Shown here: in pieces, positions 357-1,795 of the stretch
Numbering within the stretch: the first letter of the stretch is position 1
How the letters are laid out: each line of letters opens with the position of its first letter
Origin: a virus
DNA length: 15,733 bases
UHGV virus genome: UHGV-1764726
Reading direction: 5' to 3' (one strand)
Made by a program: the position numbers and the translations under genes
The notes under the pieces: generated by a model
Databases searched by the model: none
Seen by the model: the letters and a program-made list of their open reading frames with translations, nothing else
Told to the model about the DNA's origin: nothing

Positions 357-387
357 TTTTTTTGCAAATCACAAAGTCAATTTAATG

Positions 388-410
388 AGCCTCGCGATGC
401 GGGGCTTTTT
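388..410 (+). terminator. Rho-independent terminator candidate after Rz
   Basis: Stem AGCCTCGC/GCGGGGCT (one G-U pair) with short loop, followed by TTTTT at 406-410. Confidence 0.5.
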
Positions 411-417
411 GCAATAA

Positions 418-442
418 ATGCGTACCGCAACGCATGTTTTTT
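418..442 (+). terminator. Second rho-independent terminator candidate (tandem with the first)
   Basis: Stem ATGCGT (418-423) / ACGCAT (430-435), loop ACCGCA, then T-run 437-442. Confidence 0.55.
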
Positions 443-557
443 ACACCGAACCTGCCCCTTTGGAATGGGCCTTTGAGGATACCAGTTAGTGCTGGCGAGC
501 CTCGGTGGGCTGGTTTCCTATGCGGCAAAGGTTCATTTCAAAGAACAGGTATACGAC

Positions 558-1055
558 ATGAAATCATTAACCCTCTTCAATCAGCCAATCCGTGTCGCTG
601 AAGATGGCATGATCTGCCTCACTGATATGTGGAAAGCCAGTGGTAAAAGTGAATCTGAATCTCCGTACCACTACCTGCGAAACAAGCAGACCAAAGAGTT
701 CTTAGCCGAGCTGGAGAAAAACCACGAATCTGTGGTTTTTACTGAGCGCGGTGTACACGGTGGAACATATGGCGGGAAGTTTGTTGCTTATGATTATGCA
801 GCATGGCTAAACCCCGGATTTAAATATGCAGCCTATAAAGTCCTGGATGACTACTTCACCGGAGAACTCCAGCATCGCAACAGCTTAAGTGCGCAGCTCA
901 ATATGAAGTGTCATGAGTTTGATCAGAAAAAAGATATGGCGAGCTTCTGCGGGCAAGGCCTTGCGGCATGGCGCTACACGAAACCTGGTTTGATCGCTGA
1001 GATTAACTCCCTGGCTAACCAGTTGCAGATCACAATCCCCGGGCTTCCGGGATGA
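558..1055 (+). CDS. KilA-N domain protein (phage DNA-binding / antirepressor-like N-terminal domain)
   Basis: MKSLTLFNQPIRVAEDGMICLTDMWKASG...GGTYGGKFVAYDYAAWLNPGF matches the KilA-N pattern as I recall it. The ORF track opens at GTG 489, but the ATG at 558 gives the typical N-terminus. Stop overlaps the next ORF start (ATGA). Confidence 0.65.
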   Translation: MKSLTLFNQPIRVAEDGMICLTDMWKASGKSESESPYHYLRNKQTKEFLAELEKNHESVVFTERGVHGGTYGGKFVAYDYAAWLNPGFKYAAYKVLDDYFTGELQHRNSLSAQLNMKCHEFDQKKDMASFCGQGLAAWRYTKPGLIAEINSLANQLQITIPGLPG

Positions 1056-1309
1056 GTGATCGTGTCATTGAATGCGCCTCCAGAGCGGGGCGCGACTTCT
1101 CAGCGTTCATGAAAGGCGAGAAGGGCGTGATGGAAGCATTGGCCTCGGTGGATGAGTTTGGCGAGCAGTTGCGCCTCAACGGCTGTGTCAATCATCACTT
1201 TGTCAGCTACATGATGCGGAACTCGATCATGCAGGCATTCATGGACATGGCAAAAGCCGAGAAGAAAGAAAAGCGCCGGTGTAAGCGAGCGGAAGCAAAA
1301 GCGAAGTAG
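1052..1309 (+). CDS. Hypothetical small protein (85 aa, basic C-terminal tail), translationally coupled to the KilA-N gene
   Basis: ORF start overlaps the upstream stop (GGATGA); the frame does not extend upstream beyond 1019, so it is not an obvious frameshifted continuation. No family recognised. Confidence 0.5.
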   Translation: MSDRVIECASRAGRDFSAFMKGEKGVMEALASVDEFGEQLRLNGCVNHHFVSYMMRNSIMQAFMDMAKAEKKEKRRCKRAEAKAK

Positions 1310-1317
1310 CCATTACA

Positions 1318-1339
1318 AAGCCCATCTACGGGTGGGCTT
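1318..1339 (+). other. Stem-loop just downstream of the 85-aa ORF (no U-tract)
   Basis: AAGCCCA (1318-1324) pairs with TGGGCTT (1333-1339), 8-nt loop; no T-run follows, so intrinsic terminator function is uncertain. Confidence 0.35.
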
Positions 1340-1795
1340 GATAATGAAACCGGAATTTATTCTTGGCAACCAGTTACGGCAGTACCACGAAACAACCCAA
1401 GCCAGTAAGTGGGGAAATAACACTGGCAGCCACTGAAAGATGAAGCTCCTGCCTTAAGGCAAAAAAGTTTCTTTGTGGTGGCGGACTGATGGAAAGACAT
1501 CGGTTATTGCAGAGGCCATTCAATGAGTGGTCTCGACAATGGCTTATACCCTACACGGGATAACTTAACTGATATCCCTTTTAAAGGATAAAGGTATTCA
1601 AGCCTGACACATCATGCGCTGTATCGTCGCCGTATTCCTGCATTAACAGAGACCGCAGCCCGACGGGGAACTCCTCTGCGCGAGTGTGCGGAAATAATCA
1701 AAAACGATACACACCGGGGTTTACCGCGTTAACGGAGCGCGGCGTTGTCCCCTCATAGTCGCCTGTCCGGTGCGATGGTGGAAGAAACCGAACGT

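Follow-up and report, generated by a model that had tools for sequence, protein, structure and literature searches.

A mobile KilA-N gene pair behind the lysis genes of a lambdoid prophage is packaged with a terminator and a conserved leader RNA predicted to occlude a ribosome binding site

The virus genome UHGV-1764726, analysed here as one strand of 15,733 nucleotides (the window; positions count from its first letter), is part of an Escherichia coli lambdoid prophage with phage 2851 and the Stx2-1717 type as nearest relatives (93-98% identity over positions 1-2700). Between its lysis and packaging genes resides a two-gene cassette composed of a gene for a KilA-N domain protein, termed kilA in the following, and orf85, encoding a protein of 85 amino acids. 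Comparison with related phages identifies positions 388-1346 as a self-contained, horizontally exchanged accessory unit located downstream of the lysis genes within the late operon, with an intrinsic terminator as its left and a stem-loop as its right border. Equally, positions 443-557 immediately upstream of kilA constitute a conserved pseudoknotted RNA, the predicted base helix of which occludes the ribosome binding site of kilA. The gene pair as such is already known and annotated, though uncharacterised; the new part is its packaging with a terminator and a leader RNA.

Analysis of the leader was based on the 260 nucleotides upstream of every KilA-N gene of the family, which yielded 58 distinct sequences. 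In the window, positions 443-563 fold with a minimum free energy of -47.4 kcal/mol (z score -3.54), a stability reached by none of 200 shuffled sequences, and the opposite strand folds with only -35.8 kcal/mol, a difference of 11.6 kcal/mol that goes along with G-U pairs. Upon application of RNAalifold to a plain MAFFT alignment, the 5' segment CCUUUCNG pairs with CNAAAAGG of the Shine-Dalgarno region with compensatory changes, and in single-sequence folds of ten divergent leader types at least eight share the architecture with the Shine-Dalgarno sequence placed inside the base of the hairpin. The most divergent type (L016) has CUGUAGG as its Shine-Dalgarno region, paired with CCUACAG. A conserved helix and a covarying partner are the features expected of a translational leader that sequesters the Shine-Dalgarno sequence, and the base helix is 94% paired with double changes in four of its seven pairs.

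The covariation does not depend on the way the sequences were aligned. In the unfitted MAFFT alignment, pseudoknot included, 84% of the cells are paired compared to 73% after shuffling, double changes affect 65 cells compared to 23, and the covariation score amounts to 0.41 compared to 0.20 in shuffles and 0.05-0.15 in slid controls, with 0 of 500 randomisations as high for all three measures. An alignment of 42 distinct sequences with a covariance model, which is fitted to the nested helices, gave 86% paired cells (71% in shuffles), double changes in 20 of 29 pairs and a score of 0.475 (0.22 in shuffles, at most 0.12 in slid controls). The pseudoknot H1, which joins the 5' flank with the apical loop, has 5-8 base pairs in 14 of 14 representative leader types, the paired sequence differing between nearly all of them. 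Overall, the leader adopts the shape of stacked helices of 7, 5 and 4-6 base pairs with a conserved asymmetric internal loop on the 3' side. Rfam 15 holds no match at an E value of 1 or below to window positions 1-3300, or to the leaders of five relatives, which carry four other leader types.

Different readings of this interval were considered and rejected. A coding function, be it by extension of the kilA frame to the GTG codon at position 489 or through the open reading frame 434-601, is contradicted by leader types that differ by insertions and deletions and show no conservation on the protein level; the GTG-489 extension, which runs through the leader with 23 in-frame codons, is an annotation artefact. 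GGA motifs of the CsrA type are present in some leader types, but were by eye not conserved. Equally, no consensus for IHF was found within positions 300-600, and the counts over the entire window are at chance level.

The borders of the cassette are conserved in a comparable way (coordinates in Table 1). The terminator on the left (hairpin with U-run) folds with -14.1 kcal/mol (z -3.0) and occupies, in almost every one of the 58 distinct sequences, a site about 170 nucleotides before the ATG of the first gene, with a stem that varies in sequence by compensatory changes (AGCCTCG/CGGGGCT, GCCCACG/CGTGGGC, AGCCTTGCG/CGAGGCT and AGCCTGAC/GTCGGGCT). About 8-25 nucleotides past this terminator begins the short hairpin P0, the position of which is conserved and the stems of which covary among relatives (GCGCA/TGCGC, CGCTT/AAGCG, GCGCC/GGCGC and TGCA/TGCA), a covariation more in keeping with an RNA hairpin than with a palindrome bound by a protein. 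The original prediction had described tandem terminators at 388-442; the first, at 388-410, is indeed strong, whereas the second, at 418-442, is weak in the window (-6.9 kcal/mol, z -1.5) and its U-tract is absent in most relatives. The stem-loop postulated downstream of the pair is clearly recovered as a hairpin of -16.5 kcal/mol (z -5.05), as stable as none of 200 shuffled sequences. Among relatives, its GGTGGGCT does not vary and its 5' arm shows covariation; in the window, the stem-loop is followed by GAUAAUGA without a U-tract. The same stem-loop is present after the stop codon of JEP4 Rha and in a Klebsiella copy of the cassette, and occurs alone in other E. coli genomes. A generic terminator scan of positions 1-3300 was not enriched (5 found, 3.6 expected), so that the weight of the hairpins lies in their comparative conservation. 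In alignments, homology between phages breaks off at the terminator stem on the left side and, on the right, immediately past GATAATG behind the stem-loop.

The pair has been annotated as hkbK/hkbL in HK620, p60/p61 in HK97, gp59/gp60 in mEp235, gp19/gp20 in ECP1, kilA and the following gene in phage 2851, is also annotated in PhiR49_1, and is present without annotation in HK022; a literature search for hkbK, hkbL, HK97p60 and HK97p61 retrieved no relevant paper. The whole cassette occurs in 388 of 5,426 complete E. coli genomes (about 7%) and parts of it in 1,113, the exact proteins of the window are found on 283 and 646 public contigs, and 184 of 3,736 genomes matching positions 1-2700 cover at least 80% of that stretch. 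A census of 90-odd loci, composed of seven loci from species-representative genomes, 80 from IMG/VR and the annotated phages, demonstrates how variable the surroundings are. Rz alleles next to the cassette range from 42 to 100% identity, some of the lysis cassettes are non-homologous, and the packaging genes are of the HK97, the lambda Nu1/A or the P22 type. Furthermore, the pair is found inside the tail module of the Klebsiella phage vB_Kpn_RAH1 and of a Raoultella contig, with the major tail protein on one side and the tape-measure chaperones on the other, and these copies too have an upstream terminator and the 3' stem-loop. Conversely, the slot behind Rz is occupied in other phages by a Rha+ORF11CD3 gene (JEP4, P22, Stx2a phages), by a GIY-YIG gene (g341c) or by nothing. 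The initial proposal of an accessory cassette is thus borne out by a swappable slot, copies of the pair in tail modules and breakpoints at the flanking hairpins, and the pair does not behave as the conserved core late gene that had been named as the refuting outcome, as close relatives replace or omit it. As a side observation, a match to the cyclic di-GMP-I riboswitch just 3' of the Klebsiella copy (L009 4021-4080) remained below threshold (27.2 versus 35 bits, E 0.13) and is probably due to chance.

The leader is not restricted to KilA-N genes. A covariance model, R1, was built from the leaders and used to search relatives, and with it a leader is detected ahead of all KilA-N genes of the family. 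Other genes preceded by a leader encode Rha+ORF11CD3 (JEP4, P22, Stx2a), P22_AR_N+ORF11CD3, ANT/KilAC, Bro-N, KilA-N-only and GIY-YIG (g341c) proteins, and moreover homing endonucleases of the HNH_3 (+AP2) type and tail-tip-like proteins whose genes head glycosyltransferase operons. Scores reach 81.9 bits for the leader of P22 (L102 849-967) and 106.7 bits for that of JEP4, and proteins with ANT or P22_AR domains follow the leader in L018, L070 and L099. One leader type alone was retrieved from at least 146 phage records of Escherichia, Salmonella, Klebsiella, Enterobacter, Hafnia and Citrobacter, 73 of which are Stx2a phages. Leader types and downstream genes reassort, with one type located before KilA-N or Rha genes and the HK97 type before both kinds of KilA-N genes.

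Individual loci illustrate the range of these arrangements. Tandem triple units of terminator, leader and Bro-type gene follow Rz in L041 (2446-5022) and L020 (1708-3509); the order in L041 is KilA-N+P63C, KilA-N+ORF11CD3 with orf85, and a KilA-N-only gene without partner (4495-5022), and in L020 one leader precedes a mere 11-codon open reading frame, apparently a remnant. The Stx2a phage Stx2_EC3283 (L099) possesses one leader upstream of Rz (458-569, before a P22_AR_N-type gene) and another one after Rz (1824-1936, before a 183-amino acid Rha+ORF11CD3-like gene). A leader before an HNH_3 endonuclease or tail-tip-like gene is found in ECP1 (L002, 6046-6153) and at about 5388-5484 in L025, L026, L064 and L087, with copies of the L025 type lacking the upstream terminator. 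The genes behind the leaders of L002 and L025 type head glycosyltransferase genes, annotated as such in ECP1, and these operons may serve O-antigen modification. In P22, the annotated start of rha ('orf201') at L102 896 falls inside the leader, and the start codon indicated by R1 (L102 965-967) leads to a Rha protein of 178 amino acids.

Tentatively, terminator, P0 and leader together might represent a so far undescribed class of cis-regulatory RNA, a portable 'expression gate' for selfish or regulatory passenger genes in the late operons of temperate phages of enterobacteria, Stx2a phages and P22 among them, although we would not consider this wider reading the probable one. The unit of terminator and leader is absent from Rfam and was not met in the literature searches made. 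Such a gate could be opened by processing, by a host factor or by a phage protein such as the 85-amino acid partner, and could also account for the regulation of rha in P22 and phi80.

How is the cassette transcribed? A sigma-70-like site with at least 8/12 matches between terminator and ATG is present in none of the 58 distinct upstream sequences, nor, again by the sigma-70 consensus, inside the leader hairpin of any leader type, and a standard promoter scan of the plus strand over 357-557 equally returned none. Wherever late genes can be identified, the copy in the tail module included, the cassette is found on their strand. Expression from the prophage through an own start between 443 and 557, as put forward initially, is therefore disfavoured, as the interval lacks a promoter-like site in the 58 sequences, is occupied by a predicted Shine-Dalgarno-hiding RNA and belongs to a cassette co-oriented with the late genes. 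If P0 acts as an RNA hairpin, the start of any transcript that includes it has to lie upstream of the terminator. In this respect, late operons of lambdoid phages are subject to antitermination by Q, and the Q-modified RNA polymerase is resistant to terminators. In P22, the late mRNA has been described to extend through the post-lysis region (PMC2629481), and rha is described as a gene of the late operon whose product harms lytic growth if IHF is lacking (PMC4936722). Transcript data for the cassette locus were not found in a literature search, and KilA is not mentioned in the transcriptome papers on BTP1 and P22, which also contain no specific information on Rha. Separately, a promoter-like sequence (AGTACA-18-AATAAT with a TG extension) was noticed at the end of Rz at 328-357, about 30 nucleotides before the terminator, and is present in 32 of the 58 upstream sequences; if active, it would give rise to an RNA of about 45 nucleotides that stops at the terminator at 388-410.

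The assignment of the open reading frame 558-1055 as a KilA-N gene holds, with 58.6 bits for KilA-N (PF04383, residues 8-101, Pfam cut-off 23.8) followed by 46.5 bits for ORF11CD3 (PF10549, residues 109-161, cut-off 25). The product also matches PHROG 129, 'transcriptional regulator' (E 5e-61), and is 96-99% identical to HK620 HkbK (itself 96%), ECP1 gp19 and phage 2851 KilA, and its ORF11CD3 part shows 54% identity to the C-terminus of JEP4 Rha. KilA-N and ORF11CD3 belong to ten hidden Markov models of the domain-shuffling Bro network (PMC10111431), a concept of Iyer, Koonin and Aravind, which points to a Bro-network regulator of the DNA-binding type. The domains ANT, KilAC and P22_AR_N/P22_AR_C were not found in the protein by Pfam, and NCBIfam provided no match for either cassette protein. 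PADLOC retrieved only a partial, domain-level match of KilA-N to the candidate system PDC-S22 (8e-9) and a match of Orf85 to QatB at noise level; the caution with which a role in defence had been treated was appropriate.

Orf85 had been thought to lack a recognisable family. The gene is present and its start overlaps the stop of kilA as ATGA (ATG 1052-1054) as described, but Orf85 matches over its full length (residues 1-85 to positions 1-85 of the profile, E 1.3e-51) PHROG 875, a family without known function; Pfam and NCBIfam had nothing to offer for this protein. The AlphaFold model (mean predicted local distance difference test 94.2) consists of helices 3-20, 26-42 and 48-84, the last one long with a basic tail, and a fold search against PDB and BFVD identified generic helical bundles, none with an E value of 0.001 or below. 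The family is narrow, with 120 clusters at 90% identity and all named members from Enterobacterales, and a profile search of 1.84 billion representative proteins gave 21 matches, mostly fragments, with two fusions to T5orf172 as the informative ones. These remote homologues carry the domain fused to T5orf172/MUG113, a module of the Bro network, and one adjoins a KilA-N+P63C gene. The latter, a fusion protein of 164 amino acids, is encoded in a tail module (within L098 4001-5488) directly upstream of KilA-N+P63C and beside Arc, P22_AR_N and Bro-N genes; an 'Ant' gene is also named among its neighbours. A zinc site (C8, C45, H48 and H49, kept in close relatives) was considered and dropped, since the residues are not retained in the remote homologues.

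In every locus of the census with intact upstream sequence, a KilA-N gene directly precedes orf85, and orf85 is 82-93% identical behind two KilA-N proteins that share just 23% identity in the KilA-N domain; in HK97 p61 the C-terminus is divergent and shorter. At the gene junction, a fold of -22.8 kcal/mol in the window (-18.9 kcal/mol in HK620) buries the start codon of orf85, which has no usable Shine-Dalgarno sequence before its ATG. The ATGA overlap, the missing Shine-Dalgarno sequence and the hairpin at the start together argue for an obligatory coupling of orf85 translation to that of kilA. Given this coupling and the fact that orf85 strictly accompanies KilA-N genes, the most economical assumption would be that the two proteins act as partners in a complex.

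Integrating these observations, we consider it somewhat more probable than not that the cassette is silent in the lysogen, transcribed by late readthrough, gated on the level of translation and codes for a paired regulator. In a lysogen, the upstream terminator would block stray transcription and the cassette, without a promoter of its own, would be off. After induction, the Q-modified polymerase would pass the terminator and thereby make the cassette part of the late mRNA. The leader hairpin would then throttle or gate the translation of kilA, with a low or gated protein level as the outcome, and might be opened by a cut in the conserved internal loop on the 3' side, for example by RNase III, or by another factor. 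By means of the ATGA overlap together with the hairpin at the junction, orf85 would be translated in step with kilA, and both proteins together would form a DNA-binding factor of the regulator type, the target of which might lie outside the core programme of the phage, in other prophages, satellites, competitors or the host. It is their family membership that suggests an antirepressor-like, DNA-binding activity.

Several considerations weigh against this scenario. A weak, activator-dependent or non-sigma-70 promoter would escape the sequence scan, and the palindrome P0 could instead be a DNA operator. An upstream terminator would be pointless for a cassette that is transcribed exclusively by antitermination, unless insulation in the lysogen matters. 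Folded by itself, the leader of the HK620 type is barely more stable than shuffled sequences (z -1.86). The leader shape resembles that of RNase III sites in T7 and in the leader of lambda N, and opening by RNase III is compatible with the shape, from which it was deduced. Binding of the two proteins to each other and to DNA is equally a prediction from sequence. Furthermore, accessory genes at the junction of lysis and packaging genes are expressed from the prophage in other phages (phi80 tai), as is lambda bor at the same junction, and BstA, a KilA-N-like protein, is a defence protein expressed by the prophage (PMC8585504).

The latter cases lead to the alternative of a moron, a conversion or defence module expressed from the prophage by an unrecognised promoter within 411-557, in which the KilA-N protein together with Orf85 would exclude or abort superinfecting phages like BstA does. 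Besides phi80 tai and lambda bor, the swappable slot, an upstream terminator that would insulate such a promoter, the PADLOC match to PDC-S22 (8e-9) and the KilA-N-like domain of BstA are in its favour; nevertheless we judge it unlikely, as the candidate interval is without an 8/12 promoter in the 58 sequences and is taken up by the covarying RNA that hides the Shine-Dalgarno sequence, the protein of 165 amino acids ends in ORF11CD3 instead of the C-terminal domain of BstA, and the PADLOC match is on the domain level only. Furthermore, the cassette invariably shares the strand of the late genes, its leader also precedes homing endonucleases, which are not lysogen functions, and its layout is the inverse of that of a moron. 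Silencing is central to the idea of a kil/antidote pair, in which KilA-N would be toxic, Orf85 would neutralise or tune it, and terminator and leader would merely silence a poison. P1 KilA, which shares the domain (about 30% identity over residues 17-127 by tblastn), is reported to be lethal upon expression, and tight translational coupling, double silencing by terminator and Shine-Dalgarno occlusion and an orf85 strictly tied to KilA-N genes would suit such a pair. However, neither Pfam nor NCBIfam nor PADLOC assigns one of the two proteins to a known toxin or antitoxin family, and Rha, Bro-N, ANT and HNH genes without small partner are found behind the same leader, as is the partnerless, more distant KilA-N gene in L041 (4495-5022), which makes this explanation improbable.

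Equally improbable appears the view of the flanks as a DNA 'linker' for homologous recombination with an RNA structure that has no regulatory role. Leaders and genes do reassort freely, both border elements occur alone and mosaic joints are located exactly there; yet recombination needs identity and not compensatory changes, and 20 of 29 pairs are double-changed with slid controls that collapse, the plus strand is more stable by 11.6 kcal/mol and the partner of the Shine-Dalgarno sequence covaries. Roles in recombination and in regulation may coexist. A core late function, for example as a helper in lysis or packaging, has the position in the late operon, the co-orientation between lysis and packaging genes and the very common occurrence of the pair on its side. 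It is nonetheless very improbable in the face of close relatives with the same Rz or HNH/TerS/TerL genes that omit the pair or carry Rha, GIY-YIG or other genes, of the 184 of 3,736 genomes that cover at least 80% of positions 1-2700, of the copies in tail modules, and of HK97 p61 with its divergent and shorter C-terminus. Late readthrough with translational gating thus remains our preferred reading.

The surroundings of the cassette confirm its location between lysis and packaging modules, with Rz ending at position 356 and an HK97-type HNH gene, TerS and TerL further downstream (Table 1). Rz shares 97% identity with that of phage 2851, HK97 and ECP1. Between 1340 and 1795, where open reading frames are short (47-49 amino acids) and on the minus strand, the sequence consists of two backbone blocks in mosaic arrangement. 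P22-like phages share block 1340-1592, which matches P22-pbi 40180-40368 (end of rha and orf25, next to the pid locus), and block 1615-1790 is common to lambda, HK629 and Stx phages, with an annotated minus-strand promoter upstream of bor in the HK629 match. The YlcI/YnfO gene on the minus strand overlaps the start of the HNH gene by 19 nucleotides, and the cos site is expected within 2404-2693. The open reading frame of 645 amino acids at 4979-6916 combines Peptidase_S78 (residues 48-152) with Phage_capsid (386-635), as in phage 2851.

Concerning composition, the cassette had been described as lower in guanine and cytosine (GC) than the structural genes (about 43% versus about 55%). The direction is correct, but the size was overstated, with 49.6% for 357-1340 and 57.6% for the structural part from 3254 to the end, and it is not specific to the cassette. 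By part, the GC content is 48.0% in kilA, 53.5% in orf85, 51.1% in Rz, 49.6% in the intergenic stretch 1310-1795 and 47.5% in ylcI, with 47.5-49.6% over 1310-2056. As Rz, the intergenic stretch and ylcI are equally low, the step in composition separates the structural module from everything to its left and does not mark the borders of the cassette.

Table 1. Position of the cassette elements and neighbouring genes in the window
Feature	Position	Strand	Remarks
Rz spanin gene, 3' part	57..356	+	Pfam Phage_lysis, 121 bits; end of lysis module
Two-gene cassette region	357-1340	+	between Rz and packaging set
Intrinsic terminator, left border	388..410	+	9-base pair G+C-rich stem (hairpin 388-406), 3-nucleotide loop, U5
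Short hairpin P0	418..442	+	ATGCGT-N6-ACGCAT (stem 418-435), then U6 in window; second terminator of the original prediction
Structured leader RNA	443..557	+	about 115 nucleotides, irregular long hairpin and pseudoknot H1; folding, covariation
Pseudoknot H1	444-449 (CACCGA) x 502-507 (UCGGUG)	+	5' flank with apical loop
Leader base helix	450-454 (ACCUG) x 546-550 (CAGGU)	+	3' strand is the Shine-Dalgarno sequence of kilA
Leader stems	458-479 x 516-519 and 526-543; 481-487 x 508-514	+	
kilA-like gene	558..1055	+	165-amino acid KilA-N + ORF11CD3 protein; Pfam
Junction hairpin (inverted repeat I8)	1028..1061	+	buries orf85 start codon
orf85	1052..1309	+	85-amino acid three-helix protein, Lys/Arg-rich C-terminal tail; PHROG 875
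Stem-loop, right border	1311..1346	+	without U-tract
Gene-poor stretch	right of cassette, up to 1795		about 450 base pairs without convincing genes
YlcI/YnfO-like gene	1796-2056	-	DUF3950
HK97 gp74-type HNH gene	2038-2403	+	belongs to packaging set
TerS	2694-3257	+	
TerL	3254-4915	+	
Prohead protease + major capsid fused gene	4979-6916	+	

By itself, the gene pair is ordinary. The unusual aspect is a covarying leader, predicted to hide a ribosome binding site, which is located behind a terminator and common to Bro-network and homing-endonuclease genes. Should the leader indeed act as a gate, it would provide a mechanism to tolerate potentially harmful passenger genes inside the most strongly transcribed operon of the phage and a handle on the Rha/IHF phenotype, and R1 would become a signature to find slots for accessory genes in prophages. 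Furthermore, annotations can be corrected, as the start of P22 'orf201' and similar upstream-extended starts sit inside the leader.

Among known systems, the closest are the pairs of HK620, HK97, mEp235, ECP1 and phage 2851, which share the slot after Rz, terminator, leader and 3' stem-loop with the window, with HkbL 97% identical to Orf85. The first gene is different in HK97, HK022 and mEp235, where it encodes a KilA-N+P63C protein of 242-267 amino acids with 23% identity in the KilA-N domain. The rha gene of P22 and phi80 occupies the same slot after Rz behind the same leader and codes for the ORF11CD3 C-terminus also found in the kilA product, and in JEP4 it is equally followed by the 3' stem-loop. 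It differs by a Phage_pRha N-terminal domain in place of KilA-N and by the absence of an 85-amino acid partner, and the leader of the window has no IHF consensus nearby. As the only relative with a phenotype, rha is detrimental to lytic growth without IHF (PMC4936722). P22-type antirepressors, on the other hand, are related through the architecture of the cassette with the same leader and not through an ANT or P22_AR domain.

Morons in the sense of Juhala and Hendrix (HK97 gp15, lambda bor and lom) and the 'ant moron' of P22-like phages (arc-ant, sar RNA) are likewise swappable inserts of late operons, and such inserts often encode antirepressor-type proteins under tight control (PMC2629481). 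The cassette resembles them in its presence and absence, with Rha, GIY-YIG or nothing in the slot of relatives. Its GC content is 49.6% next to 57.6% for the structural genes, 51.1% for Rz and 47.5-49.6% for the region 1310-2056. A moron has its own promoter and a downstream terminator, whereas no promoter was found by sigma-70 consensus for the cassette, its 3' hairpin has no U-tract and its terminator is placed upstream. The 'ant moron' is controlled by the Arc/Mnt repressors and an antisense RNA, in contrast to a leader that would act in cis by occlusion of the Shine-Dalgarno sequence.

BstA and P1 KilA have a KilA-N-type domain in common with the protein of the window. BstA comprises about 300 amino acids with a C-terminal domain of its own, is encoded beside the repressor with an internal aba element and is expressed in the lysogen (PMC8585504). 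With 165 amino acids, an ORF11CD3 C-terminus and a post-lysis site, the protein of the window is different, and PADLOC reports no match to a BstA model. Unlike the cassette, P1 KilA is part of the lytic replicon under C1 control. Comparable to the leader are phage T4 e, soc and I-TevI, which carry hairpins that sequester the Shine-Dalgarno sequence in readthrough transcripts, as well as the lambda N leader, which is processed by RNase III. As in T4, the ribosome binding site of a gene that should not be expressed at the wrong time would be hidden in a readthrough transcript, and homing endonucleases are among the genes served in both cases. T4 opens its hairpin by late transcripts that start inside it. 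The leader described here, in which the sigma-70 consensus reveals no internal promoter, differs in being larger, in forming a pseudoknot and in its fixed association with an upstream terminator and P0.

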